From an uncultured Bacteroidales bacterium (GTDB lineage Bacteria > Bacteroidota > Bacteroidia > Bacteroidales > JAADJA01): a stretch of DNA of 64,000 bases. This document shows, piece by piece, positions 6,876-64,000 of this stretch. Below the pieces are notes generated by a model, which saw only the letters and a list, made by a program, of their open reading frames with translations, was not told where the DNA came from and searched no databases. The DNA lies in assembly GCA_963749345.1 (NCBI GenBank), contig CAVVMO010000001.1, positions 883,336 through 947,335 on the forward strand, written 5' to 3'. The translations under genes were made by a program, and so were the position numbers. Positions within the stretch are counted from its first letter, which is position 1, and the number at the start of each line of letters is the position of its first letter.

Positions 6876-6900
6876 GATATAAATTTTTCAGGTTTGAGTT

Positions 6901-47288: not shown

Positions 47289-48233
47289 ATGCGCAATCGA
47301 TCAAACGAGTTACAGCGAGCTTCATGGATTGGAATTGCAGGGAACGCACTCCTCGCTGTCTTAAAAATTTTGGTGGGATTTATTTCCGGAAGTTTTGCTG
47401 TAATAGGCGATGGAATTGATACAGCCACTGATGTTCTCACCTATGTGATTACCTTGATTACAGCCCGCATCATTTCAAAACCCCCCGATCCGAAATACCC
47501 CTATGGATATAAAAAAGCCGAAACATCTGCTACTAAAATTCTGGCTTTCATCATCTTTTTTGCAGGTGCTGAATTGTTCCTGTCTACCATAAGGCAACTC
47601 ATTTCTGGTGAATTGCGCGAAATGCCGATGATGATAGCCATTTATGTTACCGGACTGAGCATCGTTGGGAAATCCATTCTAGCTTACTGGCAGTCCAGAA
47701 TCGGGAAACGCATCAATAGTCAGATGATCATTGCTAATGCCCGTAACATGCGGAATGATGTTTTAATATCCTCATCGGTTCTCCTGGGATTGCTTTTTAC
47801 TTTTATTCTAAAAATGCCGGTATTTGACAGTATCACCGGTATGGTTGTAAGTATCTGGATTATAAAAGTAGCTTTCGATATTTACAAGGAATCTAATCTG
47901 GAAATGATGGACGGTTTGAAGGACACTAACATTTATAGTAAAATTTTCCAATCGGTCGAAGAAGTTGAAGGGGCATTTAACCCCCATAGAATAAGGGTAA
48001 GGAAAATTGCTGAACTTTACCTGATTGCACTCGATATTGAAGTGGATAAAGACACCAAAGTGAGTGACGCCCATTTGATAGCCAAGCAGGTTGAAAACAG
48101 GTTGAAGGTAAACATTGATAACATTTTTGACATTCTGATTCACATTGAACCGCTTGGTAATATCGAGGGTGATGAATTGGTCGGGATTTCAAAGGAAAAT
48201 TTGCACTTTAAAACAGGTTTTAAAACCATCTGA
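47289..48233 (+). CDS. Cation diffusion facilitator (FieF-like)
   Basis: GSFAVIGDGIDTATD, KPPD..YPYGY.KAE, NMRNDV, LIHIEP. Confidence 0.9.
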   Translation: MRNRSNELQRASWIGIAGNALLAVLKILVGFISGSFAVIGDGIDTATDVLTYVITLITARIISKPPDPKYPYGYKKAETSATKILAFIIFFAGAELFLSTIRQLISGELREMPMMIAIYVTGLSIVGKSILAYWQSRIGKRINSQMIIANARNMRNDVLISSSVLLGLLFTFILKMPVFDSITGMVVSIWIIKVAFDIYKESNLEMMDGLKDTNIYSKIFQSVEEVEGAFNPHRIRVRKIAELYLIALDIEVDKDTKVSDAHLIAKQVENRLKVNIDNIFDILIHIEPLGNIEGDELVGISKENLHFKTGFKTI

Positions 48234-51200
48234 TGAAGGATGGTTTTGAGATATTACCTTTAAGGCAATTGGTTGAAATAACCCTCAACCAGCTTAATAA
48301 TAAAGACTCCTTCTTTGGTATTCCTAAAGAATTGTTTTTTGAACCTAAGCCAACAGACCCTTTTCGTTTAATTCGTTTTGATCAATTGCTCGAAACTCCC
48401 ATCGGCACAGCAGCGGGACCCCATACTCAGATGTCGCAAAACATTGTGGCTGCCTGGCTTTGCGGCGCCAGATACATCGAATTAAAAACCATTCAAACGA
48501 TGGACGAATTGGAAGTCACAAAACCCTGTATCGACATGCAGGATGAAGGTTATAATTGTGAATGGTCGCAGGAATTAAGGATTCATGAGTCTTTTGACCA
48601 ATACTTAAATGCATGGATATTGGTGCATATTCTGAAGGATAAGTTAGGTCATCCATTGGAAGAAAGCTTGGGAACCATTTTCAATATGAGCATTGGCTAT
48701 GACCTTAAGGGTATTTTAAAGGAAAATGTTCAATGGTTTATCGATCAGATGAAAGACTGTAGCCTTCAAAAAGTGGCTAAGATAAATGAGATTCAGGACA
48801 TTTATCCGGGAATAGAAAGACTAAATATTCCTGATTGTATCTCCGATAATGTGACTCTCTCAACCATGCATGGTTGCCCTCCGGATGAAATCGAAAAGAT
48901 CGGTTTGTACCTGATTGAAGAAAAAAAACTCCACACTATCATCAAACTTAATCCCACGCTTCTTGGTAAAGAAAAGCTAAGCAGCATTCTGAAAAAAAGT
49001 GGTTTTGAAACCATCATTCCGGATGAAGCCTTTGAGCATGACCTGAAATATCCCGACGCTCTGCAAATCATACATACCCTCAAAAAGGCTGCTGATAAAA
49101 ACAAGGTTTATTTCGGTTTGAAGCTTACCAATACTTTGGAAAGTACTAACCTTAAAAAAGTATTACCGCCTGAGGAAAAAACAATTTACATGAGTGGAAG
49201 GGCCTTGCATCCAATTGCAATTAACCTTGCAGCTAAGCTGCAAAAAGACTTTAACGGATTACTCGACATCTCACTTTCTGCTGGTGCAAATGCTTTTAAT
49301 ACTCCTAAGGTAATATCCTGTGGACTAGTTCCGGTAACTGTTTGCACTGATTTGCTGAAACCCGGCGGATATGGATTACTAAATCAATACCTGGTTAACC
49401 TTGTGGAAAAAATGGAATTCAAAAAGTCATATTCGATTGAAGATTATATAAGGAAAACGTCCGGAGATAATAATACCATTGCTGGTTCTCAAATTAATCT
49501 TTACAATTACGCAATAGAGGTTCTTGAAGAAAAAAAATATCAGCTAACTGAACTACATAAACCGGATATAAAAACAGATAGGAAGCTCAATTACTTTGAT
49601 TGTATTTATGCCCCTTGCGTCGATACCTGCCCCACCCATCAGGATATTCCGGATTATCTGCATTTTGCTGCAAAAGGTGATTTTTCAAATGCATTTGAAT
49701 CAATATTTCTGACAAATCCCTTCCCGAATACAACAGGTATGATTTGTGACCATTTTTGCCAGACAAAATGTACCCGAATAAATTATGACAATCCGCTCCT
49801 GATAAGGGAAATTAAACGTCTGGTTGCAGAAGCATTTACTGATCAGTTAACATCAAATCAACAGCCTGAAAATGGTGTTAAAGTTGCCGTTTTAGGTGCA
49901 GGACCATCTGGTCTAGCTTGCGCATTCTATCTTACACTTGGAGGTTTTGAGGTGGACGTTTTTGAATCGAAAAGCGTTGCCGGAGGGATGGTTAATGAAG
50001 CCATTCCTGCATTCCGGTTGAATGAGGCTGGACTTAAAAAGGATTTGGAAAGATTAGAAAAGGCTGGAGTTAAGATTTTCTTTAATTCGGAAATTAATGA
50101 ACTGCGATTTAAAGAAATCCGAAGCGAATACAATTTCATTTACATTTCAACGGGTGCCTGGTCATCACGAATATTTGCAATAGATGGAATTAATTCCAAG
50201 GGAGTAGTCGATCCTCTTAAATTCCTTGCTGACATGAAGAAGGGCATCCGACCAGAAATAGGAAAAAATATTGCTGTGATCGGTGGCGGAAATACGGCTA
50301 TGGATGCTGCAAGATCAGCTTTTCGGCTAACGGGTAAAAATGGAAAGGTAACCATTCTTTATCGTCGTTCAAAAGCCCTGATGCCAGCCGCCCCGGATGA
50401 AATAAAAGCAGTTGAGGAAGAGGGTATCTCAATAATAGATTTAACCTTACCTGTCAGGGTCAATTCCATAAACAACCAGGTCAAATCATTGACTTGTGTT
50501 AAAATCAATCTTGAACAAAAAAATGGAACCGGTAGACCTATGCCTTTCGAAATTCCAAATTCAGAATTTGATCTTGAATTCGACACGGTAATTCCTGCTA
50601 TTGGACAGGATGCGGAATTTAATTTTATCGAAAAAAAATTAATCGCGACGGAAACTAAAGGTTATGAAACTCAAATTCAAAATATATTTATTGGTGGAGA
50701 TGCAAAAAGAGGGGGTTCGACCATCATCAATGCAATAGCCGATGGAAGAAAAACAGCAGAATTGATCATGCAGCGGGCCGGTTATCCACTTGAGCTTTAC
50801 CAAATAAAACGGGTACAAGAAGAGTTCAATAAACTTATGGCCAAAAAAATGGTACGTGAAAGAGCTGTCAGGATTCCAGAAACCTCATTAAATGATCGAA
50901 AGAACTTCAACCTCGTTACGAATACCCTACCCGTTGACCTGGCTCAAAAAGAAGCTTCACGTTGCTTGCTTTGCGATGAATTGTGCAATATTTGTGTCAC
51001 CGTTTGTCCTAACCTGGCTTGTTATTCTTATCAGGTTGAGCCCTTTCAGGTAAACCTTCAAAAAATTCACAAAAAAAATGGTCACCTGACCATTTCAGAC
51101 GACAAAACTTTCGGGGTAAAGCAAAACTACCAGATTTTGCATATTGCAGATTGGTGCAATGACTGCGGGAACTGTTCTACGTTTTGTCCCACATCAGGTT

Positions 51201-51511
51201 CACCATACAAGGATAAGCCTCATTTATTTCTGAGCAAGAAATCCTTTGATTGCAGTGATGAGGGTTACCATTATGATCCACTGAGGGGGCGGCTTTATTT
51301 CAAGCAAAAGATGCGGTCTTATTCGTTAGTCAAATCAGGCAATAATTACATTTTCGGGAATAATAATTCTTCAGCCGTATTAGAAGCTGCGACCTTAAAA
51401 GTAATAAGTTCTGAGCTGAAGGACGACCATGCAATATATTTGGATAAAGCCGCTGAAATGTCATTAATTTTGGCGGGAGCAAAAGAATTTTGGACGGGTT
51501 CAATTAAATAA
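48233..51511 (+). CDS. ygfK: YgfK-like Fe-S flavoprotein ('putative selenate reductase subunit')
   Basis: GTAAGPHTQ..QNI...W..GARYIELKT; CIYAPCVDTCP; CDHFCQTKC; GAGPSG; GGGNTAMD; CDELCNICVTVCPN; CNDCGNCSTFCP. Confidence 0.85.
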   Translation: MKDGFEILPLRQLVEITLNQLNNKDSFFGIPKELFFEPKPTDPFRLIRFDQLLETPIGTAAGPHTQMSQNIVAAWLCGARYIELKTIQTMDELEVTKPCIDMQDEGYNCEWSQELRIHESFDQYLNAWILVHILKDKLGHPLEESLGTIFNMSIGYDLKGILKENVQWFIDQMKDCSLQKVAKINEIQDIYPGIERLNIPDCISDNVTLSTMHGCPPDEIEKIGLYLIEEKKLHTIIKLNPTLLGKEKLSSILKKSGFETIIPDEAFEHDLKYPDALQIIHTLKKAADKNKVYFGLKLTNTLESTNLKKVLPPEEKTIYMSGRALHPIAINLAAKLQKDFNGLLDISLSAGANAFNTPKVISCGLVPVTVCTDLLKPGGYGLLNQYLVNLVEKMEFKKSYSIEDYIRKTSGDNNTIAGSQINLYNYAIEVLEEKKYQLTELHKPDIKTDRKLNYFDCIYAPCVDTCPTHQDIPDYLHFAAKGDFSNAFESIFLTNPFPNTTGMICDHFCQTKCTRINYDNPLLIREIKRLVAEAFTDQLTSNQQPENGVKVAVLGAGPSGLACAFYLTLGGFEVDVFESKSVAGGMVNEAIPAFRLNEAGLKKDLERLEKAGVKIFFNSEINELRFKEIRSEYNFIYISTGAWSSRIFAIDGINSKGVVDPLKFLADMKKGIRPEIGKNIAVIGGGNTAMDAARSAFRLTGKNGKVTILYRRSKALMPAAPDEIKAVEEEGISIIDLTLPVRVNSINNQVKSLTCVKINLEQKNGTGRPMPFEIPNSEFDLEFDTVIPAIGQDAEFNFIEKKLIATETKGYETQIQNIFIGGDAKRGGSTIINAIADGRKTAELIMQRAGYPLELYQIKRVQEEFNKLMAKKMVRERAVRIPETSLNDRKNFNLVTNTLPVDLAQKEASRCLLCDELCNICVTVCPNLACYSYQVEPFQVNLQKIHKKNGHLTISDDKTFGVKQNYQILHIADWCNDCGNCSTFCPTSGSPYKDKPHLFLSKKSFDCSDEGYHYDPLRGRLYFKQKMRSYSLVKSGNNYIFGNNNSSAVLEAATLKVISSELKDDHAIYLDKAAEMSLILAGAKEFWTGSIK

Positions 51512-51514
51512 ACT

Positions 51515-52984
51515 ATGAAAAGCAAAGAGGAAGTTTTAGCTAATACTATTAAGCGCTGCCGCGAAAAGCACATCATCATACCTACGTATAAACAAATGCG
51601 CAATCCCGAATTGATCCCCCGAAGAATTCAGGATAAGCTGAAAAATATCGGGCTATGGGATTTAAATTCATTGAACCTCTTCAGGATTAACTGGAAAAAT
51701 GAACCTGTTGATTTCGGGGGAGGTTTTGGAAAAGTCAATATCCTTGAAATACCTCCCACACTTTCTGGAGTGAAGGCAAGGATTTTTATTTTAATCGGTA
51801 AATTCTTCCCCACAGGTGCACATAAAGTAGGTGCTACTTTCGGCCCTTTGGTCGAAAAACTGGTTACCGGTCAGTTCGATCCCACCTGGCAAAAAGCATT
51901 GTGGCCTTCAACAGGGAATTATTGCCGTGGAGGGGCTTACGATTCTTACCTTCTGGGATGCAATTCAATTGCAGTTCTTCCTGAAGAAATGTCGAAAGAG
52001 CGTTTCGAATGGCTTCATAGAGTGGGTGCTGAAGTTTTCGCTACACATGGCTGCGAAAGCAATGTTAAAGAGATTTATGACAAAGTAAAAGAACTCAAAG
52101 CAGAAAGAGGAGAGGAAATTGTAAACCTCAACCAGTTTGAAGAATTTGGTAATCCGCGCTGGCATTATGCAGTTACCGGACCAGCAATGGAAGAAGTATT
52201 TACAACAGTGAAAACTGAAAAAAGCAGGTTTAGTGCGGTATTTCTTACACAAGGATCAGCCGGAACGCTAGGAAGCACGGATTATCTTCGTGAACGATTT
52301 CCAATGATGAAAGTCTGCGCAGGAGAAGCCTTGCAGTGCCCTACCCTGCTTTATAACGGATATGGTGGACATCGCATCGAAGGCATTGGCGATAAACATG
52401 TGCCCTGGGTTCACAACATTAAAAACATGGACATGGTAGCTGGTATTGATGACGATGCCAACATCCGGATCATGCGGCTGTTCAACGAAGTTGCAGGCAG
52501 AAATTATTTGATCAATGAAATTGGTATTGATCCGCTCCTGGCAGATAAATTAGGATTGCTTGGCATTTCATCCATAGCTAACCTGATGGGAGCAATCAAG
52601 ATGGCAAAGTATTACGAAATGAATGGGGATGATTTTGTCTTTACCGTTGCCACCGACTCAATGGAAATGTATCGCTCCAGGCTCCGTGAAGAAAATGAAA
52701 GCCATGGCAATTTTGATGCACTTAATGCTGCCATTTCCTATGAAGCCGATTTGCTTAAACTTTCCATCGATTACATGATTGAATTGAACCATTATGACAA
52801 AAAGAGAATTCATAACCTGAAATACTTCACCTGGATCGAACAACAGGGTAAGACCGTTGAAGAACTGAATGATCAATGGTTTGACAACAATTACTGGAAA
52901 GCAAAATATTCAGGTATTGATTCATGGGATGAGAAGATCAATGAGTTCAATGAAAAGACCGGGTTATTGAAGGAATATGAGTAA
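51515..52984 (+). CDS. PLP-dependent fold-type II enzyme of unknown substrate
   Basis: FPTGAHKVG (PLP Lys), STGNY, NQF, GSAGTLG, HRIEGIGDKH (cysteine synthase-like features). Confidence 0.8.
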   Translation: MKSKEEVLANTIKRCREKHIIIPTYKQMRNPELIPRRIQDKLKNIGLWDLNSLNLFRINWKNEPVDFGGGFGKVNILEIPPTLSGVKARIFILIGKFFPTGAHKVGATFGPLVEKLVTGQFDPTWQKALWPSTGNYCRGGAYDSYLLGCNSIAVLPEEMSKERFEWLHRVGAEVFATHGCESNVKEIYDKVKELKAERGEEIVNLNQFEEFGNPRWHYAVTGPAMEEVFTTVKTEKSRFSAVFLTQGSAGTLGSTDYLRERFPMMKVCAGEALQCPTLLYNGYGGHRIEGIGDKHVPWVHNIKNMDMVAGIDDDANIRIMRLFNEVAGRNYLINEIGIDPLLADKLGLLGISSIANLMGAIKMAKYYEMNGDDFVFTVATDSMEMYRSRLREENESHGNFDALNAAISYEADLLKLSIDYMIELNHYDKKRIHNLKYFTWIEQQGKTVEELNDQWFDNNYWKAKYSGIDSWDEKINEFNEKTGLLKEYE

Positions 52985-54209
52985 AGCATTCGTTTATTAT
53001 TGCCCCAACTGCGACAAGGAATATCCCGGAACGGAGATCATCTACCTGTGTCCCGGTTGTAGCAATAACAATTTTCTCCCTCCAAAGGGAGTCCTCCGGG
53101 TCATTTACGATTATCTTGATATACCCCGGGAATCAGACATTTTCCACTACTTAATTTCGACCGGATTTATCGACCTTCTCCCTATCCGGTCATTAAATTC
53201 ACTTCCTCCTTTGCGAATAGGAAATACGCCTCTTTACGCATTCAATAGATTTGCAGGTAAACCCCTGTCATTTGAATTATTATTAAAGGATGATTCCCTA
53301 AATCCGACATTTTCTTTCAAGGATCGTGCTTCTGCTTTGGTCTCTGCTTTTGCCAAAGAACATGGTCAAAACACCATCATCACTGCTTCAACAGGAAATG
53401 CAGGCTCATCTCTCGCAGGTATATGTGCATCCCAGGGACAAAAAGCCATGATTGTTGTTCCTTCCGACGCACCGGTTGCCAAACTCACCCAGATTTTAAT
53501 GTATGGAGCGACAATTATTCCCATACTCGGAACCTATGATGATGCATTTGAACTGAGTATTCAGGCCACCCGGGAATTTGGTTGGTATAATCGCAATACC
53601 GCCTTTAATCCCCTCACCATTGAAGGCAAAAAAACAGTCGCTTTTGAGTTATTTCAGCAAATGAATGGCCGTCTCCCCGACCGGATATTTGTACCCGTTG
53701 GCGATGGTGTAATTATTTCAGGGGTCTACAGGGGCTTCGAAGACCTTTTCATTTTAAATCTTATCGAAAGAATTCCCATTATTGTTGCAGTGCAGGCCGA
53801 AGGAAGTTCTAATCTTATCAGCAATCTTCAGGCTGAAGAATTCAAAGTCAGGAAAAGTCATACCATTGCCGATTCAATTGCTGTTGATTATCCACGGAAT
53901 TTTTATATGGCTCGTGGTTACATCAACGATTACGCTGGAGAAGCGATTTCTGTCACCGATCTGGAGATTCTCGATGCCTCGCGTCAACTTGCTGTCAATA
54001 CAGGCATTTTTATCGAACCTGCATCGGCTGCTGCAGTCGCCGGAATGCTGAAATATTACAAAGAGGATAAGCTCAATACCGGCACAAGAAATGTTGTCCT
54101 GCTCACCGGCAGCGGGCTAAAGGATATTAATGCCGTTCAACCATTATTGAACTTGCCCGCTCCCATTGAACCAAAAATAGCTGAAATTCAAACCCTCCTG
54201 AAACTTTAG
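52977..54209 (+). CDS. Threonine synthase-like PLP enzyme with N-terminal Zn-finger
   Basis: CPNC...CPGC; NPTFSFKDRAS; ASTGNAG; PVGDGVI; EPASAA; LLTGSGLKD. Confidence 0.85.
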   Translation: MSKAFVYYCPNCDKEYPGTEIIYLCPGCSNNNFLPPKGVLRVIYDYLDIPRESDIFHYLISTGFIDLLPIRSLNSLPPLRIGNTPLYAFNRFAGKPLSFELLLKDDSLNPTFSFKDRASALVSAFAKEHGQNTIITASTGNAGSSLAGICASQGQKAMIVVPSDAPVAKLTQILMYGATIIPILGTYDDAFELSIQATREFGWYNRNTAFNPLTIEGKKTVAFELFQQMNGRLPDRIFVPVGDGVIISGVYRGFEDLFILNLIERIPIIVAVQAEGSSNLISNLQAEEFKVRKSHTIADSIAVDYPRNFYMARGYINDYAGEAISVTDLEILDASRQLAVNTGIFIEPASAAAVAGMLKYYKEDKLNTGTRNVVLLTGSGLKDINAVQPLLNLPAPIEPKIAEIQTLLKL

Positions 54210-54607: not shown

Positions 54608-55885
54608 ATGAAAAAAAGTTTAACTATTTCTTCTTTTTTGGCAGTAGCCACACTTTTTATGGTGCTCCTCTTTGCAAGCTTTACATTACCTGACTACAAA
54701 AACACAAAAGCCACAACCGGAGGACTGCTAACATTTACTGTAAGAACTGTAACTGATAACGGAACCTATTCCCCAAAACATGTTCTGGCCATTTGGGTCG
54801 AAGACGCCGATGGTTTTGTTAAAACCAGAAAAGCGATGGCCAATCAGCGGAAACAATACCTGTACACATGGAAAGCAGCTTCAAACTATAACGTGGTGGA
54901 TGCAATTACCGGCTCAACACTCACCAGCCACCAAACCCATACTGTTGAATGGAACTGTACAGATCTTTCCGGTAATATTGTACCCGATGGAGATTACACT
55001 GTTTGGGTTGAATTCACAGGTAAGCATGCTCAGGGACCTTTGTACAACATTACCTTTGCCAAAGGGCCTAATGCCCAATCTTTTAGCCCAGCTGACCAAA
55101 CCTATTTTAAAGATATACAGCTCGATTTTATTCCCTATGTTGCTGAATTTACATCCGATGTAACTGATATTTGCCAAAGTGAAATTGTAACGTTTACTGA
55201 TCAGTCAGTCGGTGCAACTTCATGGTCCTGGAATTTTGGTGCAGGTGCATCACCTGCTTCAGCTATTACCATGGGTCCTCATACCGTGATATATTCAACA
55301 CCTGGTCCTAAATCAGTAAGTTTAACAATTAATAGTTCCGTTACTGAAACAAAACAAAACATGATTACAGTTAATGCTTCACCAACCGCCGAGTTCAGCT
55401 TTTCCGGAATTGAATATACAGTAGAATTTCTGAATGGTTCCGTAAATGCAACTTCATATTTATGGGATTTTGGAGATGGAAATACAAGTACTGAAAATAA
55501 TCCATCTCACACCTATGCCAGCGCTGGCACTTATATAGTTTCGCTTACTGCCACCTATATGGATTGCAATGATCTTATAACTCATGAAGTTTCGCTACCC
55601 ATGGTTGGGTTCAACAATCAATTGATTAACAATAATGAAGCAGTTTCAATATTTCCTAATCCTTCAGCTGGATTAATAAGCATAAGAATGAATGAACAAG
55701 CCCCTGGAACTGTTTCAGTAACTGTTTTTAATACTTTAGGGAAGATTATTCATGAATCAACCACTTCAAACCTGACAGTAAATCACACCATAAATCTTGA
55801 TCTGTCAAATCAGCCTAAAGGAATCTACTACATAAAAATTGGAAGCAACAACCTGAAAGCGAATAAGAAAATCATGCTTTATTAA
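54608..55885 (+). CDS. DUF2271 plus PKD domain protein with T9SS type A CTD
   Basis: HVLAIWVEDADGFVKT...DAITGST (DUF2271-like); WSWNFG and YLWDFGDG..STENNPSHTY (PKD); IFPNPS...GIYYIKI...KKIMLY. Confidence 0.82.
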   Translation: MKKSLTISSFLAVATLFMVLLFASFTLPDYKNTKATTGGLLTFTVRTVTDNGTYSPKHVLAIWVEDADGFVKTRKAMANQRKQYLYTWKAASNYNVVDAITGSTLTSHQTHTVEWNCTDLSGNIVPDGDYTVWVEFTGKHAQGPLYNITFAKGPNAQSFSPADQTYFKDIQLDFIPYVAEFTSDVTDICQSEIVTFTDQSVGATSWSWNFGAGASPASAITMGPHTVIYSTPGPKSVSLTINSSVTETKQNMITVNASPTAEFSFSGIEYTVEFLNGSVNATSYLWDFGDGNTSTENNPSHTYASAGTYIVSLTATYMDCNDLITHEVSLPMVGFNNQLINNNEAVSIFPNPSAGLISIRMNEQAPGTVSVTVFNTLGKIIHESTTSNLTVNHTINLDLSNQPKGIYYIKIGSNNLKANKKIMLY

Positions 55886-56366
55886 GCAGGAATTACTTTA
55901 AAGGCAACAAATTTTCATCCGCTATATTTAATGACGCTTCCCTTTGTCAATGTCAAAGTTCGGGATACCCTGACTCAATTGTAACATTCTGGTATTTGGC
56001 ATTTATCTTTTATTAAACTTAAAGACCCTCAATTTTCCAGATGTGCCTAAAACAAAAAGGTATATGCGGGGTACAACCTGTTATGAATTTCCAAGGATAC
56101 GAAGCTTATTGATTACTCCTAAATCTCCAAATTAGCATTCTCCTAAAATTGGGATTAATTTATTTGTTTTAAAGTCAATTAAATAATTTAAGTCTTCAAT
56201 TTGTCCTTCTATTCAATAGACCCGATTTATTCCTAAAAAAATTGGACATATGGAGCTCAATGCTAGTATAACCAAAAGGTCTTTACGGAAAGGTTATGCA
56301 TTTCTATTTTAACTTTTTTTCTTTCAAAGGAAACTAATCGTCAAATAAAATTAAATCCTGGTGATT

Positions 56367-56386
56367 AATTCAACAGTTGTTGAATT
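56367..56386. promoter_or_regulatory. Perfect 8-4-8 palindrome, candidate activator binding site
   Basis: aattcaac-agtt-gttgaatt about 155 nt upstream of the putative -24/-12 element. Confidence 0.4.
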
Positions 56387-56539
56387 TGTTTACAGCATCA
56401 TTAAAAACTTGTTTTACTGATCTATACATAATGTTTATGCCAATAGTGTTTAATTTTTAAACACCATAGTGTGAATGAATTTTAAACATCTCTTTTGTTA
56501 TAATATTGAATATAATATAGTTATAACTGATTTATAGCT

Positions 56540-56556
56540 TTGGTATCAAAGTTGAA
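56540..56556 (+). promoter_or_regulatory. Putative sigma-54 (-24/-12) promoter
   Basis: TTGGTATCAAAGTTGAA: GG-N10-GA versus consensus TGGCAC-N5-TTGC; a sigma-54 activator is encoded at the end of the same gene run. Confidence 0.45.
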
Positions 56557-56621
56557 ATACCTTTAAAAATATAAGTTAATTATATATGATTTTTTTTACA
56601 ACTATTTTAAAACTAAATATT

Positions 56622-58334
56622 ATGAAAAATACATTTCTTCTTTTCGTAAGTTTTTTACTCCTTTATTCAAGTTTTGCAATTAGTAAAGAAGTATTGAAAA
56701 AAGACAATACAGTCAAGGATAATACAATAACTATTTTGTGTTCTCCCGATTTGTATGATCTCACAAAGCAATGGACAAGCGCCTATTGCAAGTTTAATCC
56801 CAGCACTGAAATTAACTTAATTACCGCCAATCCTGATGCGTTGGGCAGCAAGTTTAACACTGGTGTAAATTTAGGTTTTATTTCAAATCGATATTATCCA
56901 TCGATTGAAAGTGTAAGCAATTCGCTATGGGTAGTGGTGATTGGTCGGGATATCATTGTTCCGATTATTAATTCTAAAAATCCATTTATCGATAAAATCA
57001 ATCAACAGGGTATTTCATCCTTTGAGTTGGCTGAAATATTTGAAAACCCACAAACGCAGAACTGGAGGTCACTCATTGAAAACGGGGAAAATGCTCCTTT
57101 GAATTACTATTTGATAGCAAATGAATCAGTAAAATCAGATGTGGCAAATTTCATGAATGTAAATCAAATAAATATTAAGGGAATAGAAGTAAATATTGGT
57201 AAAGAACTTGTCACTGCTGTTCAAAATGATCCTTACGCGATAGGTTTTTGTAAATTAACCGATATTATTAATTCCGGCAATCAGGATTTTGTTGACAATA
57301 TAAAGTTGCTGCCAATCGATAAAAACGGGAACGGGCAAATTGATTACTTTGAAAAAATATATGATAATCTGAATGATTTCTCCAGAGGTGTTTGGATAGG
57401 GAAATACCCTAAAACATTGATATGTGAGTTATATTCAGTCTCCAATGGCATTCCGAAAAATGAAACGGAAGTGGCATTTTTGAAATGGGTGCTCACCGAA
57501 GGTCAGCAAATAGTGGTAAATAATGGTTTTAGCGAACTGGTATATAATGAAAGGCAAACGAAGTTGGAAAAGCTAAATGATCATAAGATTTATGCTGAAA
57601 CCACAAAGGATCAATATGCCTTGAAAAACATACTATTTCTTATTTTTATTGTATTCATGGTATTCCTGGCAGGCGGGTTATTTGTTAACGTTATAGTCCG
57701 GAAAAGAAGGAATAATATTAAGACTCAAAATAAAGGCTTATCCAATCATCCTAAAGTGATCAATGAAAATTCTTTGACTGTTCCCAATGGATTGTACTTC
57801 GATAAAACACATACATGGGTTTTTATGGAAAAAGATGGAATTGTCAAAGTAGGTATTGATGATTTCCTGCAGCATATCACTGGACCCTATTCGCATCTGA
57901 AAATGAAAAATCCTGGTGACAAGATAAAAAAGAATGAGCAGATATTGTCTCTTATTCAAAACGGTAAACATTTAAATATATATGCAGCGATTTCAGGAAC
58001 GATAATAGATATAAATGAACATTTGATTACTGATCCTTCAATAATCAACCGCTCCCCTTATGCTGAAGGTTGGGTTTACATGATTGAACCATCCAACTGG
58101 TTACGTGAAATCCAGTTCTTACGAATGGCAGAGAGATACAAAGAATGGATACAAAATGAATTTTCAAAGTTAAAGGATTTTCTTGCTGTTTCGGTGCATA
58201 CCAAAACCGCCGGATATGCCCACGTTACGTTTCAGGAGGGTGGGGAACTTAAAGATAATGTACTACAGGATTTTGGACCTGAAGTCTGGGAAGATTTTCA
58301 AAAAAATTTCATTGATACTGCCGGATTAAGGTGA
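56622..58334 (+). CDS. PstS-like periplasmic binding domain, TM helix and GcvH-like domain fusion
   Basis: Signal peptide; IGRDIIVPIINSKNP...ELAEIF (PBP-like); TM ILFLIFIVFMVFLAGGLFVNVIV; FDKTHTWV...VKVGIDDF...ISG...N..L..DP.IIN.SPY.EGW (H-protein fold). Alternative start at 56586. Confidence 0.8.
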   Translation: MKNTFLLFVSFLLLYSSFAISKEVLKKDNTVKDNTITILCSPDLYDLTKQWTSAYCKFNPSTEINLITANPDALGSKFNTGVNLGFISNRYYPSIESVSNSLWVVVIGRDIIVPIINSKNPFIDKINQQGISSFELAEIFENPQTQNWRSLIENGENAPLNYYLIANESVKSDVANFMNVNQINIKGIEVNIGKELVTAVQNDPYAIGFCKLTDIINSGNQDFVDNIKLLPIDKNGNGQIDYFEKIYDNLNDFSRGVWIGKYPKTLICELYSVSNGIPKNETEVAFLKWVLTEGQQIVVNNGFSELVYNERQTKLEKLNDHKIYAETTKDQYALKNILFLIFIVFMVFLAGGLFVNVIVRKRRNNIKTQNKGLSNHPKVINENSLTVPNGLYFDKTHTWVFMEKDGIVKVGIDDFLQHITGPYSHLKMKNPGDKIKKNEQILSLIQNGKHLNIYAAISGTIIDINEHLITDPSIINRSPYAEGWVYMIEPSNWLREIQFLRMAERYKEWIQNEFSKLKDFLAVSVHTKTAGYAHVTFQEGGELKDNVLQDFGPEVWEDFQKNFIDTAGLR

Positions 58335-58374: not shown

Positions 58375-59238
58375 ATGAGGATAGATAGAAGAAACTTTTT
58401 CAGGGTGCTTGGTTTAACAGGGGCATCACTGGCTATTGGAAGAGAATTGAACGCAGCACCAATAAATGAAAATGAAATTGAATTCAATGGTATTCTATAT
58501 GATTCGACCCGTTGTGTTGGATGCCAGAGTTGCGAATATGCCTGCGCAAAAGCCAACGGTTTGCCGGAACCTACCGATTCACCGGAAATTGGTATGTTGC
58601 GCAAAACTAATGAATCAAGACGATCTGTAATTAACGGTTATAATACTTCGAAGGGCGAAGTTTATGTCAAACGCCAGTGTATGCAATGTAACGAACCGGC
58701 TTGCACTGCGGCTTGCCTGACACAGGCGATGCTTAAAACCAAAGAAGGGCCGGTTATTTGGAGGGGTGAAAAATGCATGGGTTGTCGTTATTGCATGGTT
58801 TCCTGCCCTTTTGATATTCCGAAATTTGAGTATTTCAGTTCGAATCCAAAGATTACAAAGTGCGATATGTGTCATGACCGTCTGCTGGAAGGCAAAATGC
58901 CTGCCTGTGTTGAAAATTGCGAGACAGAAGCACTTGTATTTGGAACGCGATGGGAACTAATCAAAGAGGCACGCAAACGTATTCAGGAAAATCCGGAATT
59001 CTATGTGGATCAAATTTATGGTGAAAAAGAAGCTGGTGGTACTGGATTCCTTTACCTTTCGCCTGTTCCATTTGATGAATTAGGCTTCAGTACAAAAATC
59101 CAAAAGACTTCATACCCCGAATTGTCAAAAGGATTTCTTTATAGTGTCCCGACCATATTTGTTCTTTGGCCGGCAATTTTACTAGGAATTCAGGAAGCCA
59201 CCAAAAATAACCATCATAACGAAGAGGAAAATGAATGA
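58375..59238 (+). CDS. HybA/HmcB-like Tat-exported 4x[4Fe-4S] protein
   Basis: RRNFF Tat motif; CVGCQSCEYAC, CMQCNEPAC...C, CMGCRYCMVSC, CDMC...PACVENC; C-terminal TM. Confidence 0.9.
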   Translation: MRIDRRNFFRVLGLTGASLAIGRELNAAPINENEIEFNGILYDSTRCVGCQSCEYACAKANGLPEPTDSPEIGMLRKTNESRRSVINGYNTSKGEVYVKRQCMQCNEPACTAACLTQAMLKTKEGPVIWRGEKCMGCRYCMVSCPFDIPKFEYFSSNPKITKCDMCHDRLLEGKMPACVENCETEALVFGTRWELIKEARKRIQENPEFYVDQIYGEKEAGGTGFLYLSPVPFDELGFSTKIQKTSYPELSKGFLYSVPTIFVLWPAILLGIQEATKNNHHNEEENE

Positions 59239-60463
59239 TATAATTAGTTATACAATAGCAAAAGGCCACGAAAGTATAAACTTATGGAAGTTTTTACTCA
59301 ACGAATTGAAACCAAAGGGTAAAATATTTACCCCATTCAACATCATTTCTCTACCCATCATACTGTTAGGCCTGGTGCTTATTGTTATCCGGTTCTGGAA
59401 AGGAATCGGATCAATAACAAATCTAACTCAGGAAGTTCCCTGGGGATTGTGGATTGGGTTTGATGTGGTAACAGGCGTTGCATTTGCAGGTGGGGCTTAT
59501 GTGATCACTTTTATGGTGTATATTCTGAATATGCAGAAATATCATTCCATTGTCAGGGTTACAGTATTGAATGGATTTCTGGCTTATGCATTTTATGCGG
59601 GCGCACTATTACTCGACCTTGGACGTCCCTGGAATGTGATCAATCCGATCATCGGTAACAGCTTTGGCACAAGCTCGGTGCTGTTCCTTGTTGCCTGGCA
59701 CTTCCTGCTGTACATGATTGCACAGTTAATTGAATTTTCACCTGCTATAGCAGAATGGCTTGGTGCCCGTCGTGCCCGAAAGATCCTTTCAAGCATGACC
59801 CTTGCAGCGGTCATTTTTGGTATCACTTTATCCACTCTGCATCAATCGGGATTGGGGGCTCTCTATCTTATGGCAAAAGACAAAATTCATCCGCTTTGGT
59901 ATTCAGAATTCATTCCCATCCTATTTTTTGTATCAAGCATCTTTGCCGGGCTCTCTATGGTTATCTTTGAGGGATCTATCAGCCGAAAAGTATTTTTTGA
60001 TCAGATCAGCGAAAGAAACCATCGTTCACATAATGGCATCATCCGTGGTTTATCAAAAATCTGTGCCGGAGCGATGTTTGCTTACTTTTTTCTTCAAATC
60101 CTCGTTTTTGTGCATGGCAAACAATGGAACTTGTTAAATACCCCGATGGGTTACTGGTACCTTACGGAGATGGTTGGGTTCGTGCTTCTCCCGATGATGC
60201 TTTTCTTTTTTAGTTACCGGAGGAATAATATTTTATTGATAAAAGTTGCATCCATCATCACCATGGTCGGAATCATTATAAACAGGTTAAATGTTACTGT
60301 AATTGGGTTCAGATGGGATGCGGCGACACACTATTTTCCATCGTGGATGGAAATTGTTGTCACTATGTCGGTTATATTCACAGAAATATGGATATTCAGG
60401 TGGGTAATTAATCGCATGCCTGTTTTACGTGAATCGCCAAAATGGATTAAAGATATAAAATAA
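59231..60463 (+). CDS. HybB/HmcC-like NrfD-family integral membrane subunit
   Basis: PWGLWIGFDVVTGVAFAGGAY, DLGRPW, STLHQSGLG, about 10 TM helices; overlaps the HybA-like gene. Confidence 0.9.
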   Translation: MNDIISYTIAKGHESINLWKFLLNELKPKGKIFTPFNIISLPIILLGLVLIVIRFWKGIGSITNLTQEVPWGLWIGFDVVTGVAFAGGAYVITFMVYILNMQKYHSIVRVTVLNGFLAYAFYAGALLLDLGRPWNVINPIIGNSFGTSSVLFLVAWHFLLYMIAQLIEFSPAIAEWLGARRARKILSSMTLAAVIFGITLSTLHQSGLGALYLMAKDKIHPLWYSEFIPILFFVSSIFAGLSMVIFEGSISRKVFFDQISERNHRSHNGIIRGLSKICAGAMFAYFFLQILVFVHGKQWNLLNTPMGYWYLTEMVGFVLLPMMLFFFSYRRNNILLIKVASIITMVGIIINRLNVTVIGFRWDAATHYFPSWMEIVVTMSVIFTEIWIFRWVINRMPVLRESPKWIKDIK

Positions 60464-60511: not shown

Positions 60512-61222
60512 ATGGACGGATTTATTTATACTGACATTTTTGAGACAAAAGGAATTGAATATTTGATCATTATCTCATTCCTTGTCATCCTGATCCTGTT
60601 CTGGATCATCCTCAATAAACAAACAGAAGTGACAAATCGAATTCACAAAGCGATGGGTGCACTTACAGCCAGTATTTTAAGAATTCCGCATGGACTGTTC
60701 TACAGTAAAAATCACACATGGGCACACTTAGAAAAATCAGGCAATGCAAAAGTAGGACTGGATGACTTTTTGCTCCAAATTGTTGGGGATGTAAAAGTCA
60801 ACCCTCTTAAATTTCCCGGTGAAAAACTCAGAAAGAATGAGATCCTTGCAGAAATTTATCAAAATGGTAAACGGCTTAGAATAATTTCTCCTATATCAGG
60901 TGAAGTTGTCAGCACAAATACCTTGATCAGGGATAATCCTGAACTGCTGCATGATGATCCTTACGGAAAGGGCTGGATTTATGCCATAAAACCGTCAAAC
61001 TGGAAGGAAGATATTCATTCGTATTACCTGGCAGAGGAAGCAACGCATTGGATAACAAAAGATCTGGACCGATTTAAGGATTTTTTGGCCATATCGATTG
61101 GAAAATATTCCACCGAACCATCGATGATTGCGCTCCAAGAAGGAGGTGAACTTCGTCGGAACATCCTTTCAGAATTAGATCATGAAATATGGAATGAATT
61201 TCAGGAATCATTTTTAGACTAA
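60512..61222 (+). CDS. Membrane-anchored GcvH-like protein
   Basis: N-terminal TM (EYLIIISFLVILILFWIIL); NHTWA...KVGLDDF...SPISGEVV..N...DNPELLHDDPYGKGWIY. Confidence 0.85.
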   Translation: MDGFIYTDIFETKGIEYLIIISFLVILILFWIILNKQTEVTNRIHKAMGALTASILRIPHGLFYSKNHTWAHLEKSGNAKVGLDDFLLQIVGDVKVNPLKFPGEKLRKNEILAEIYQNGKRLRIISPISGEVVSTNTLIRDNPELLHDDPYGKGWIYAIKPSNWKEDIHSYYLAEEATHWITKDLDRFKDFLAISIGKYSTEPSMIALQEGGELRRNILSELDHEIWNEFQESFLD

Positions 61223-61331: not shown

Positions 61332-63005
61332 ATGGCGCTTATTAATAAATCAGGATTCCAAAAAAGCAGAGGATATAAGTTTTACGAAAAGTATTTAAGA
61401 TTCCGGTCTTCGATCTATAGCCGGGTTATATTTATCATTACCATATTGTCGGTATTCTTGTTTGTATCCTTTGGGTTAATTTTCAGATCCGTATACGAAG
61501 ATTACCTGAACACTGTCATCCGCCAAAGTGGAAATAACATCGGATCCATCGTGGAGGGAGCATTATATTATTCCATGCTCCAAAACGATAAAAGCTCGCT
61601 GCAAAGCACACTTGATATCATCAATACCATGCCGGGTATTGATGAAGTTAATATGTACAATAATCAGGATAGCCTTGTATATTCATCCTTCTCTTTCGAC
61701 ACAACCACCGAGAGCAATCCCAATTGCAAAAGTTGCCACGAGGATATTAAATCAATGTTTCCCGGTAATGAAAAATCATACAAGATTATTGACAAGGCCA
61801 GTGCTTGTTTAATGAGTCAGAACGAAAATGGTCACAGACAATTGTTAATACGGTCCCCAATATACAATGAAAGATCCTGTTACCTGAGTTCCTGTCATGC
61901 GCATCAGCAATCAGATGTTGAGCTCGGATCTCTGATTATCAAAGTTCCATTGCAAGACCTTGATGTGGCGGTTATAAAATCTTCCCGGGATTTTTTTCTG
62001 TTTGCTACAATTACCACCATCTTACTTGTTTCCTTTTTAATATTTTTTACGAGAAAAAAAATTAAAAACCCACTCAAGGCTATTATCAAAGCAAGCGAAG
62101 CTGTAGCTAGGGGTGACAAAAGTATGCGACTGGAAATTACACCCTACCTTTTAGATGACATGAGGATGGTTTCCATTGCCTTCAATAATATGCTCGATAA
62201 TCTTAATTTAGCAACCAAGGAATTGGAAAACTGGTCGCATCAGCTCGAATACAAGGTCCAAAAAAAATCAGAAGAATTATCCGAAATTCAAAATGAATTA
62301 ATCCATGTGGAGAGAATCGCATCCCTCGGGAAACTCTCTTCATCTGTCGCCCACGAAATAAATAATCCATTATCGGGTGTTTTAACTTATACCAAGTTGG
62401 TTCATAAACAGTTGAACAAACTGGATTTGGATAGTAAAGCAAAAGAATCCATGTTAAAATATCTGACAGTGATTGAAACAGAAACCAAGCGGTGTGGTGA
62501 CATTGTTAAAGGATTGCTCGATTTTTCAAGAAAAGACCAGGAGAATTTTGAGAATAAACAATTGCATAAAATATTAAAGGATACTTATGATTTGATGGCA
62601 CACCAGATGAAAATGGCAAATATTAACTTTTATACCGATTTTTCAGCCCTTTCGGATTTAATATATTGCAGTGAAAATCAAATAAAACAGGCTTGTGTTG
62701 CCATTTTGGTAAATGCTTCTGAAGCGGTTCCGGAGAATGGGGAAATTCTGATAAAAACAATGAATCCTGACGAGGATCATATAAGGCTCGAAATTACTGA
62801 TGACGGTGTGGGCATCGCACCTGAAGATATGCCCCATATTTTTGAACCATTTTTCTCAGCCAAGCAAAAAGCCAGCGGTATTGGTTTGGGACTGGCCATT
62901 GTTCATGGAATAGTTCAAAGCCACAAAGGCAAATTAGAAATAAAATCCGAGCCTGGAAAGGGAACAACCCTTGCCATAATTTTACCATTGGTCAAGAAAC
63001 AATAA
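61332..63005 (+). CDS. Sensor histidine kinase with periplasmic CxxCH, HAMP, HisKA and HATPase domains
   Basis: Two TMs; CKSCH and CYLSSCH between them; VAHEINNPL; NQIKQ...LVNASEA; DDGVGI; FEPFFS; GIGLGL. Confidence 0.92.
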   Translation: MALINKSGFQKSRGYKFYEKYLRFRSSIYSRVIFIITILSVFLFVSFGLIFRSVYEDYLNTVIRQSGNNIGSIVEGALYYSMLQNDKSSLQSTLDIINTMPGIDEVNMYNNQDSLVYSSFSFDTTTESNPNCKSCHEDIKSMFPGNEKSYKIIDKASACLMSQNENGHRQLLIRSPIYNERSCYLSSCHAHQQSDVELGSLIIKVPLQDLDVAVIKSSRDFFLFATITTILLVSFLIFFTRKKIKNPLKAIIKASEAVARGDKSMRLEITPYLLDDMRMVSIAFNNMLDNLNLATKELENWSHQLEYKVQKKSEELSEIQNELIHVERIASLGKLSSSVAHEINNPLSGVLTYTKLVHKQLNKLDLDSKAKESMLKYLTVIETETKRCGDIVKGLLDFSRKDQENFENKQLHKILKDTYDLMAHQMKMANINFYTDFSALSDLIYCSENQIKQACVAILVNASEAVPENGEILIKTMNPDEDHIRLEITDDGVGIAPEDMPHIFEPFFSAKQKASGIGLGLAIVHGIVQSHKGKLEIKSEPGKGTTLAIILPLVKKQ

Positions 63006-63012
63006 AAAAATA

Positions 63013-64000
63013 ATGATAAAAAAAATTTCACTGTTGATCGTTGACGATGAAGAATCGGTAAGAGATTCTTTATACAACTGGTTCATCGAAGATGGCTATA
63101 ATGTTGATGGTGCCGAAAATGCCAAGGAGGCCTTATCAATGCTTGAATCAAAAAATTATGACATTATCCTGGCTGATATCAAAATGCCCGGAATGGACGG
63201 GCTTGAGATGCACAGAAGAATCAAATCCCTGAATAAGGATTCCATTGTCATTGTTATGACCGCATTTGCGTCTGTTGAAACGGCAGTTCAGGCATTAAAA
63301 GACGGAGCGTATGATTACGTAACGAAGCCTTTTGACCCGGATGATCTGTCTCATTTAATTCGCAATGCAGCAAGCCAGATAACCCTTAAAGCTGAAAATG
63401 AGGCCCTGAAAAACAAAATCATCTCCCTTGAAAACATTGAAGATATTATCGGGAACAGCGATGCCATGATGAAGGTTCTCAAGGAAGTTGAGAGTGTCGC
63501 CCAATCGAATTCATCGGTGATCATCACCGGTGAAAGCGGCACGGGGAAAGAGCTTATCGCCAGGGCTATTCATTCCAATTCCCCGCGTAAATATTTTCCC
63601 ATGGTGAGTGTACATTGCGGGGCTTTATCAGAAAGTTTGCTGGAAAGTGAGTTATTCGGACATGAAAAAGGGGCATTTACCGGTGCTATGTTTAACCGTA
63701 AAGGAAGATTTGAAATGGCTGATGGTGGTACTATATTTCTAGATGAAATAGCTACTATTTCTGCAAAAATGCAAATTGAATTGTTGAGAGTATTGGAATC
63801 AAAAACTTTTATGCGTGTAGGAGGCAATAAGGAAATTAAATCAGATTTCAGGGTTATTTGCGCCACCAACAGGGATTTAAAAAAACTGGTTGAATCCGGC
63901 ACTTTTCGCGAAGACCTATATTACAGGCTGAATGTTGTGAATATTAAAATTCCTCCCCTTCGTGAGAGACCTGAGGATATTCCCCAGCTTGTTGATCACT
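63013..64000 (+). CDS. Sigma-54-dependent (NtrC/AtoC-type) response regulator, 3'-truncated by the window edge
   Basis: Not in the ORF track. MIKKISLLIVDDEE, ADIKMPGMDG, TGESGTGKELIARAIH, ESELFGHEKGAFTGA, FREDLYYRLNV. Confidence 0.93.
   Translation, partial: MIKKISLLIVDDEESVRDSLYNWFIEDGYNVDGAENAKEALSMLESKNYDIILADIKMPGMDGLEMHRRIKSLNKDSIVIVMTAFASVETAVQALKDGAYDYVTKPFDPDDLSHLIRNAASQITLKAENEALKNKIISLENIEDIIGNSDAMMKVLKEVESVAQSNSSVIITGESGTGKELIARAIHSNSPRKYFPMVSVHCGALSESLLESELFGHEKGAFTGAMFNRKGRFEMADGGTIFLDEIATISAKMQIELLRVLESKTFMRVGGNKEIKSDFRVICATNRDLKKLVESGTFREDLYYRLNVVNIKIPPLRERPEDIPQLVDH

Follow-up and report, generated by a model that had tools for sequence, protein, structure and literature searches.

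The window analysed here, a 64,000-nucleotide stretch of a contig from an uncultured Bacteroidales bacterium, carries at positions 56622 to 58334 of the forward strand a gene, hereafter gene A, whose product is a type I single-pass inner-membrane protein with a periplasmic binding protein (PBP) fold outside and the fold of the glycine cleavage H-protein (H-fold) inside. Gene A opens a seven-gene cassette (A-B-C-D-E-F-G) in which E encodes a histidine kinase, F its response regulator and G a peptidase of family M54. The protein is genuinely tied to signalling, its gene being the first behind a conserved sigma54 promoter and candidate enhancer and remaining with the kinase and the regulator even where genes B, C and D have been lost. 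Our favoured reading, to which we give a probability of about 0.4, is that it serves the adjacent two-component system as an accessory protein, for input and/or feedback.

Architecture and spread of the gene A protein

The open reading frame of gene A (+ strand, ending at 58334) has two possible starts, at 56586 and 56622. Because the first two residues of the 570-amino-acid (aa) product (M1 and K2) hardly vary among 81 aligned homologues, we place the start at 56622 (MKNTF...); the longer form of 582 aa, starting at 56586, was rejected on the same N-terminal conservation. The protein presents the following features, given as positions in the window:

56622-58334, + strand: gene A, 570 aa, with signal peptide, PstS-fold domain, transmembrane (TM) helix, H-protein-like domain and helical tail
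56622-56687, + strand: signal peptide, aa 1-22, without a lipobox cysteine, read from the sequence; helix at aa 2-25 in the AlphaFold2 (AF2) model
56724-57581, + strand: periplasmic type II binding-protein fold, aa 35-320, assigned to the PstS family by fold and profile, its phosphate-ligand motifs being degenerate
57318-57353, + strand: EF-hand-like loop of 12 residues, DKNGNGQIDYFE, aa 233-244, an insertion between the last strands of the binding domain
57627-57701, + strand: the one TM helix, aa 336-360, with RKRR after it; in the AF2 model the helix extends over aa 330-366
57774-58121, + strand: cytoplasmic H-protein (GcvH) fold, aa 385-500, by Pfam GCV_H, phmmer and Foldseek
57966-57968, + strand: codon of Lys449, which is invariant and part of the hairpin motif [QRH]-x-G-K-[QH]; the canonical lipoyl-lysine position lies one residue before it
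58122-58322, + strand: helical C-terminal extension, aa 501-567, conserved, common to the product of gene D and not found in ordinary GcvH

The AF2 model, for which the 81-sequence alignment was the input (mean predicted local distance difference test score, pLDDT, of 81), comprises a signal helix, an alpha/beta domain (aa 35-320), a long helix (aa 330-366), a beta-rich domain (aa 385-500) and a helical tail (aa 503-564). Averaged over the 81 homologues, the net charge is -0.7 in the 15 residues before the TM helix and +4.2 in the 20 residues after it, a bias that places the binding domain outside and the H-domain and C-terminus in the cytoplasm. An earlier note on this DNA had read a signal peptide, a PBP-like segment, one TM helix followed by RKRR and an H-fold from the sequence, with a solute-binding-type domain outside and the H-fold inside; all these elements were recovered by Pfam, profile searches, AF2 and Foldseek, and the topology agrees with the charge bias. 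The same note had compared the protein with a transmembrane receptor. The layout and the tie to a signalling operon speak for this comparison, but the TM helix and its linkers, which a receptor would need for transmission, are the least conserved and most flexible parts: column identity is lowest in the juxtamembrane segment (0.36), the TM helix (0.39) and the cytoplasmic linker (0.41), against 0.62-0.77 in the domains, and both linkers flanking the TM helix (aa 322-332 and aa 363-376) have a pLDDT below 50 in the model. Pfam and NCBIfam scans recognised only GCV_H in the cytoplasmic part and no known signalling output domain, among which HisKA/HATPase, MCP signal, GGDEF/EAL, kinase and DNA-binding domains were considered.

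The periplasmic domain reaches PstS-type proteins by two routes, in line with the PBP fold proposed in the earlier note. These proteins are the best matches of the AF2 model in a Foldseek search of the PDB (4jwo at E 1e-16, and also 4pqj, 4n13 and 1twy, with TM-scores of 0.70-0.71 on the target for the last two), and a profile made of 28 periplasmic domains retrieves the solved phosphate-binding protein 4pqj from the PDB (E 2.5e-8). Many homologues of A bear the precomputed label PF12849. Of the two families expected in a scan with hidden Markov models, GCV_H was found at 92 bits, whereas PBP_like_2 attains only 20.2 bits (aa 35-259), below its gathering score of 27. The likeness to PstS therefore stands for the fold and fails for the ligand site, where the phosphate motifs are not conserved. 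In the alignment to 4pqj, the GS[DST]T motif (SDT) has become SPD in the A family, the AGSST loop (GSS motif) faces a variable segment and is lost, and MSR faces IS-x, the arginine not being conserved. By our own reading of the consensus of the 81 homologues, the R...SGT segment of PstS corresponds to Y..D.S. Phosphate is therefore an unlikely ligand, and a role as phosphate receptor was ruled out by these degenerate motifs. The part of the periplasmic domain with the highest column identity (0.85) is instead the loop DKNGNGQIDYFE, in which D233, N237, D241 and E244 are invariant and N235 and G238 nearly so; it fits, by our own reading, the EF-hand loop consensus and is probably a Ca2+ site. 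The protein shares with PstS (PBP_like_2) and with binding proteins that feed kinases the type II fold, an extracytoplasmic site and an adjoining kinase gene. It differs from PstS in its unconserved phosphate ligands, its EF-hand-like loop, its TM tether to a cytoplasmic domain and the lack of an ABC transporter. No pstCAB or other ABC transporter genes are present in the cassette at any locus whose gene table was inspected; an ABC-2 pair upstream of the cassette in locus L086 lies on the opposite strand and is unrelated to it.

On the cytoplasmic side, Pfam GCV_H (PF01597) matches aa 391-512 over profile positions 1-121 of 122 with 92.1 bits (gathering score 22.2, E 3e-26), and phmmer against the PDB finds 1onl at E 4e-17. 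The solved H-proteins 1onl, 3ab9 and 3klr superpose on the domain in Foldseek with TM-scores of 0.93-0.95 and a root-mean-square deviation of 1.1-1.5 Å, at 28-30% identity. The GcvH equivalog and subfamily cutoffs of NCBIfam are missed (TIGR00527, 76.6 vs 115.85; NF002270, 88.4 vs 117). Both G448 and K449 are invariant in the 81-homologue alignment, and [QRH]-x-G-K-[QH] occurs in every A homologue counted from the loci. The hairpin is as long as in true H-proteins, with its lysine one residue later: K449 stands 11 residues (canonical 10) past the glycine of 'KGE' and 7 (canonical 8) ahead of the proline of 'P.SG'. HMMER brings it onto the lipoyl lysine by a compensating indel in the alignment to 1onl, and the ungapped alignment to 2ka7 puts it at +1; the two-residue turn of the hairpin in the AF2 model is N447-G448. 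The flanking residues are QNGKH in A and QxGK[QH] in the family, as opposed to the canonical E-[SA]-[VIM]-K-[AST], and the PROSITE lipoyl-site pattern, checked by hand, is not matched by A. Wallis and Perham are said to have found that lipoylation is impaired when the target lysine of lipoyl domains is moved by one position. Because Lys449 is shifted by one residue and has non-canonical flanks, its lipoylation is uncertain, and we consider it somewhat unlikely. The description 'GcvH-like' thus suits the fold and only partly the lysine, which is invariant but displaced.

The extension that follows the H-fold forms helices at aa 503-526, 530-536, 547-550 and 553-564 in the model and contains nine residues invariant in the 81 homologues (E513, Q538, G540, G541, P553, W556, F559, Q560 and F563). 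Its motifs QEGGEL and W..F...F recur in the paralogue encoded by gene D, so that A and D have in common one cytoplasmic module made of the H-protein fold and the helical tail. This module resembles GcvH (PF01597), LbpA of the sHdr system and GcvH-L of Firmicutes in its fold over the whole domain and in its hairpin lysine. However, GcvH is a soluble protein of ~130 aa working with the P-, T- and L-proteins, whereas A is membrane-anchored and 570 aa long; A also departs from these relatives in its 65-aa helical tail, its lysine shifted by one, its QxGK[QH] motif and its scores below the equivalog cutoffs. Its gene neighbours are also unlike theirs, a two-component system and HmcBC-like genes in place of gcvT/P, lpd, hdr or ligase genes; gcvT and gcvP are lacking from the cassette both in the window and in the related loci whose gene tables were inspected.

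The fusion is far from a one-off, as full-length relatives with the same architecture are widespread and number in the hundreds at 45-60% identity. A protein search returned more than 100 full-length homologues of A (~565 aa, 48-60% identity), those with names coming from metagenome-assembled genomes (MAGs) of Bacteroidales, Prolixibacteraceae, Saprospiraceae and Mariniphaga. When genomes representing the GTDB species, one for each, were scanned by pattern, 418 stretches were found to encode a relative. In the best 80 of these 418 loci the match spans nearly the whole protein, and the labels are almost all Bacteroidota (Bacteroidales, Prolixibacteraceae, Lentimicrobiaceae, Draconibacterium, Mariniphaga and Maribellus). 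A few MAGs among the matches listed, on which alone the taxonomic spread of A is based, are labelled 'Eubacteriales', 'Syntrophothermus' or 'bacterium', probably by binning or labelling noise. Cassette carriers amount to hundreds of species of sediment and lake Bacteroidota and of anaerobic Bacteroidia. Searching 1.84 billion representatives with a profile of the paralogue D gave 403 clusters at E <= 1e-30; the best 150 of them comprise ~30 D-type proteins (~236 aa), ~115 A-type proteins (~560 aa) and a few variants. Among the latter, P0260 joins a short binding domain to a D-type module, and P0303 and P0270 consist of a TM helix and an H-module without any binding domain. The constant unit of the family is 'TM + H-fold + helical tail', the binding domain being its usual, not obligatory, partner. 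We ruled out a frameshift or assembly artefact, since the ~115 clusters among the best 150 and the best 80 loci, from different projects, share the ~560-aa architecture.

The cassette, its promoter and its two-component system

Most of what can be learnt about A comes from its operon context, which the earlier note had not seen. The elements of the cassette other than gene A are:

56446-56464, + strand: candidate enhancer (upstream activating sequence), palindrome GTGTTTAA-N3-TTAAACAC, ~95 bp upstream of the -24 element
56541-56555, + strand: sigma54-type -24/-12 promoter TGGTATCAAAGTTGA, family consensus TGGCAY-N5-TTGA
58375-59238, + strand: gene B, protein exported by twin-arginine translocation (Tat), with four 4Fe-4S motifs and a C-terminal TM anchor, HmcB/HybA-like (Fer4_11)
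59231-60463, + strand: gene C, quinone-interacting membrane protein of the NrfD family (Pfam NrfD), HmcC/HybB-like
60512-61222, + strand: gene D, 236 aa, with short periplasmic N-tail, TM helix, H-protein fold and helical tail; paralogue of the C-terminal half of A
61332-63005, + strand: gene E, histidine kinase with a periplasmic Cache/PDC-like sensor, HAMP, HisKA and HATPase (Pfam)
63013-64000, + strand: gene F, 5' part, continuing past the window; NtrC-type sigma54-dependent response regulator, the frame beginning MIKKISLLIVDDEE
outside the window: gene G, Peptidase_M54 (archaemetzincin-like), observed downstream in related contigs

We compared 85 loci by tblastn. The order A-B-C-D-E-F-G is kept in the large majority of those long enough to display it, while the flanks, upstream of A and downstream of G, vary between loci; A was present in both of the two contigs approached from D. 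In related loci the orthologues of gene F carry Response_reg, Sigma54_activat and HTH_8 domains and are followed by the Peptidase_M54 gene. This last gene always comes after the regulator, also in loci without B, C and D (e.g., L001 15781-16329, L002 8323-8856 and L086 10981-11517).

The motif TGGCAY-N5-TTGA is present 44-116 bp upstream of the start of A in 77 of 84 loci, all eight that lack B-C-D included. A window search with the strict pattern TGGC-N8-TGCW gave no match near gene A, because the -12 element of the family is TTGA, where the textbook has TTGC. Farther upstream, the palindrome GTGTTKAA-N3-5-TTMAACAC is kept at equal distance across loci. It is essentially specific to the position upstream of A, as it occurs once within the 64-kb window and as related loci, over 1.3 Mb, contain 53 matches of which 52 fall within the 400 bp that precede A. 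A sigma54 two-component layout is thus complete, with a -24/-12 promoter, an upstream palindrome and an NtrC-type regulator, as is typical of enhancer-dependent promoters, and the simplest inference is that the cassette's own regulator activates the A promoter. A scan of the operon for generic sigma70 promoters and terminators was uninformative (34 found vs 30.6 expected).

Genes B and C encode a pair close to the HmcB/HmcC proteins of Desulfovibrio and to HybA/HybB of Escherichia coli hydrogenase 2, which likewise associate a Tat-exported, anchored protein with four [4Fe-4S] clusters and an NrfD-family protein. In NCBIfam, B scores 315 bits with HmcB (cutoff 420, not reached) and 229 bits with HybA, and C scores 409 bits with HmcC (cutoff 550, not reached) and 258 bits with HybB; an RRNFF Tat motif and a C-terminal hydrophobic segment can be read in the sequence of B. 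The pair differs from Hmc and Hyb in that it falls below the equivalog cutoffs and is accompanied neither by an HmcA cytochrome nor by HmcE/F or a hydrogenase. Counterparts of HmcA, HmcE and HmcF were sought in the cassette, and no multihaem cytochrome, cytochrome b or HdrD-like gene was found there. One locus (L087) has a truncated gene C of 103 aa (6588-6899) between intact B and D.

The product of gene D matches Pfam GCV_H with 77 bits and is 35-39% identical to the A modules of related loci (tblastn). Its lysine K120 is at least 90% conserved; one homologue has an arginine and another a shifted lysine. Its most conserved parts are the periplasmic N-tail (column identity 0.87) and the TM helix (0.77), as expected of a specific intramembrane contact. 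In its first 17 residues MDGFIYTDIFETKGIEY (60512-60613), predicted to be periplasmic, F10, T12, K13, G14, E16 and Y17 are invariant. Such conservation points to a specific contact, in the periplasm or within the membrane, whose partner may be B or C. A second match to D occurs in L006.

The kinase resembles AtoS and ZraS (NCBIfam), and its periplasmic part (~61485-61980) has no Pfam match, DUF3365 included. This part presents the invariant residues C132-x2-C135-H136, C159, C183-x4-C188-H189 and H191, that is, one CxxCH and one Cx4CH motif, two types that are both used by cytochrome c3. The AF2 model (pLDDT 75) consists of a long helix followed by a five-stranded sheet. Its best Foldseek matches are to the extracellular Cache-type domain of WalK, with a WalK-YycH model on top, and to the haem-c sensor domains 3b42 and 3b47 (GSU0935 and GSU0582 of Geobacter). 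A homology search with the sensor gave 95 matches, many of them short or partial proteins, a set that sufficed for the structure model but was too thin for a study of distribution; homologues were found in Bacteroidota only. From its sequence motifs, the sensor probably carries c-type haems, and it is probably a new family of haem-c sensor domains. It resembles the haem-c PAS/Cache sensors (GSU0935/GSU0582; sCache_haem/DUF3365) in its predicted Cache/PDC fold and its CxxCH motif, but differs from the DUF3365 sensors in having no Pfam DUF3365 match, a Cx4CH besides the CxxCH and an extra invariant cysteine. Haem-c Cache sensors (sCache_haem/DUF3365) have recently been described as nitric oxide or redox sensors (PMC12889525). 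The sensor domain is the only candidate periplasmic haem partner encoded in the cassette. Because HmcB of Desulfovibrio pairs with a periplasmic multihaem cytochrome, the haem domain of the kinase is the obvious candidate partner of B. Five loci (L004, L005, L016, L038 and L057) have two kinase genes as a tandem duplicate.

In eight loci, A is directly followed by the kinase, the regulator and the peptidase, without B, C and D; one of the eight, L039, has kept a fragment of NrfD (3117-3353), and this remnant and the truncated gene C of L087 represent two states of decay of gene C. In a neighbour-joining tree of A, each of these eight loci is nearest to full-cassette loci and no two of them cluster, from which it follows that B-C-D disappeared together on at least eight independent occasions. 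Since A stays with the kinase, the regulator and the peptidase when B-C-D are lost, these four make up one functional group, and D falls into another with B and C. The haem motifs of the kinase are kept in all seven B-C-D-less loci whose kinase is in the alignment. Between loci, the kinase and the regulator are 67-80% identical where A is 45-50% identical (tblastn), a contrast that suggests a tightly constrained signalling core with A as a faster-evolving accessory.

Upstream of the cassette, a secreted protein with a DUF2271 domain, two PKD domains and a type IX secretion C-terminal sorting domain, which fits a Bacteroidota origin, is encoded at 54608-55885; this gene precedes A in close relatives only. 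Farther upstream on the same strand (48233-54209) are genes for a 1092-aa glutamate-synthase-like Fer4_20/Pyr_redox_2 protein and for two PALP enzymes, one of 489 aa and the other a threonine-synthase-like protein of 410 aa with a Cys-rich N-terminal segment (the zinc-ribbon match being weak and sub-threshold). L001 has this three-gene set as well, but more distant loci lack it upstream of A, and it is therefore not part of the cassette. The G+C fraction is 0.31 at 56001-58000 vs ~0.39 in the rest of the window, over a segment that spans a 736-bp AT-rich intergenic region and most of gene A.

Possible functions of the gene A protein

If the gene A protein is an accessory of the two-component system, the response regulator would bind the palindrome and switch on A (together with B-C-D), as ZraR does with zraP or CpxR with cpxP. 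The PstS-fold domain with its Ca2+-type loop would no longer bind phosphate; it would bind another periplasmic ligand or dock on the sensor of the kinase. The H-like module would dock on a partner common to A and D, which may be the cytoplasmic part of the kinase, the regulator or the M54 peptidase. D would report likewise on the HmcB/HmcC-like module, which would give periplasmic redox centres access to the menaquinone pool and might pass electrons to or from the haems of the kinase. Precedents are known: binding proteins are partners of kinases in TorT-TorS, LuxP-LuxQ and PstS/PhoU-PhoR, YycH/YycI are membrane accessory proteins of WalK, and regulators induce their own accessory protein in ZraPSR and with CpxP. 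Like ZraPSR and CpxP-CpxAR, the cassette has its accessory gene directly behind the regulated promoter, and with ZraPSR it shares an AtoS/ZraS-like kinase and an NtrC-type regulator; A differs in being a membrane-spanning two-domain protein with an H-fold, ZraP and CpxP being small periplasmic chaperones. Because the TM helix of A and its flanking linkers are variable and predicted to be flexible, A would more likely act as a two-sided membrane tether or scaffold than as an allosteric receptor.

Several points weigh against an accessory role. If A were a co-sensor only, the A-E-F-G systems would visibly regulate nothing but themselves, A and the peptidase, though further members of their regulon may lie elsewhere in those genomes. 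We know of no signalling role for the H-protein fold, and the periplasmic domain of A could be a pure protein-protein module. The invariant lysine beside the hairpin tip also hints at a covalent cofactor, for which a redox or carrier role fits better than docking. The main rival, which we take seriously while judging it unlikely, has A and D form with B and C a membrane redox complex that is inducible and to which they contribute lipoyl arms; the two-component system would do no more than switch the complex on. The HmcB/HmcC-like pair would join periplasmic electron carriers to menaquinone, and a lipoyl (or similar) arm on the invariant lysine would connect it to cytoplasmic dithiol/disulfide or sulfane-sulfur chemistry, by analogy with DsrC and DsrMKJOP or LbpA and sHdr. 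Such a complex would account for an H-fold very near that of true lipoyl carriers, for a lysine invariant in A and at least 90% conserved in D, for the joint position of A to D behind a regulated promoter, for the high conservation of the N-tail and TM helix of D, as for an intramembrane subunit contact, and for the scores of B and C near the HmcB/HmcC models. It is difficult to reconcile with the fact that at least eight independent lineages have kept A while losing B-C-D and with a TM helix in A that is poorly conserved, unlike that of a fixed complex subunit. The lysine, moreover, is off by one, with QxGK[QH] for E[SA]VK[AST], fails the PROSITE pattern and is replaced by arginine in one D homologue, and the electrons would lack a path: NrfD-type proteins have no cofactor that could conduct them to the cytoplasmic side, and a haem-b or HdrD-like subunit is missing from the cassette.

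The receptor-like layout and the position in a signalling operon would also suit an autonomous one-protein receptor, in which the signal of a ligand passes through the TM helix to the H-domain as a new output domain. We consider this improbable, as the TM helix, the juxtamembrane segment and the cytoplasmic linker are precisely the least conserved parts of A, with both linkers predicted to be disordered, and as Pfam and NCBIfam find no known output domain. Furthermore, P0270, P0303 and D are TM helices with an H-module and have no binding domain, which implies that the module works without one. In another reading, equally improbable in our view, the module of A and D would be a new signalling or coupling device, a membrane-tethered swinging arm, lipoylated or otherwise modified on the invariant lysine. 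By the chemical state of this arm, the two-component system would be informed about the quinone module (through D) and the periplasmic domain (through A); the M54 metallopeptidase might then process or de-modify the module. Taken literally, finally, database names would make A a phosphate-binding protein and/or a glycine-cleavage H-protein, an ordinary transport or metabolic part fused by chance. These names are automatic only; the one given by the Joint Genome Institute (JGI) is 'glycine cleavage system H lipoate-binding protein / ABC-type phosphate transport system substrate-binding protein', and both folds do match. Yet the phosphate-ligand motifs are lost, PBP_like_2 stays below its gathering score and the GcvH equivalog scores are far under cutoff, the protein has a membrane anchor and an extra helical tail, and a kinase, a regulator and HmcBC-like genes stand where pstCAB or gcvT/gcvP would be expected nearby, so that we hold the literal names to be very improbable as a description of function.

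Novelty and meaning

Every part of A and of the cassette belongs to a known fold or family. The novelty lies in how the parts are combined, in an H-module that is tethered to the membrane and has a tail, and in the connection of this module with a sigma54 two-component system. The earlier note knew of no characterised protein with this architecture, and full-text literature searches on the themes of GcvH, NrfD, HmcB, sigma-54 and sensor kinases agree with it, having returned no description of either the protein or the cassette. To our knowledge, the folds of H-proteins and of lipoyl carriers have otherwise been described only in soluble complexes of metabolism and, in more recent work, in sulfur oxidation. 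In the present case the H-fold is membrane-anchored in two paralogues of one sigma54-controlled cassette, one of them fused to an extracytoplasmic binding domain, and the same cassette holds an orphan HmcBC-type quinone module and a kinase with a probable haem-c sensor. The automatic names 'GcvH' and 'phosphate-binding protein' are misleading for several hundred database entries.

Redox sensing and the sigma54 regulons of anaerobic and sediment Bacteroidia are, as far as we know, almost unstudied, and the TTGA-type promoter with its palindrome could act as a search key for sigma54 regulons in Bacteroidia. Solving the cassette would define a new class of accessory proteins for two-component systems and a function for NrfC/NrfD modules without a catalytic subunit, and would tell whether lipoyl-type arms serve outside metabolism. 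With swinging-arm signalling, if true, a lipoyl-carrier fold would for the first time be found at work in bacterial signal transduction.

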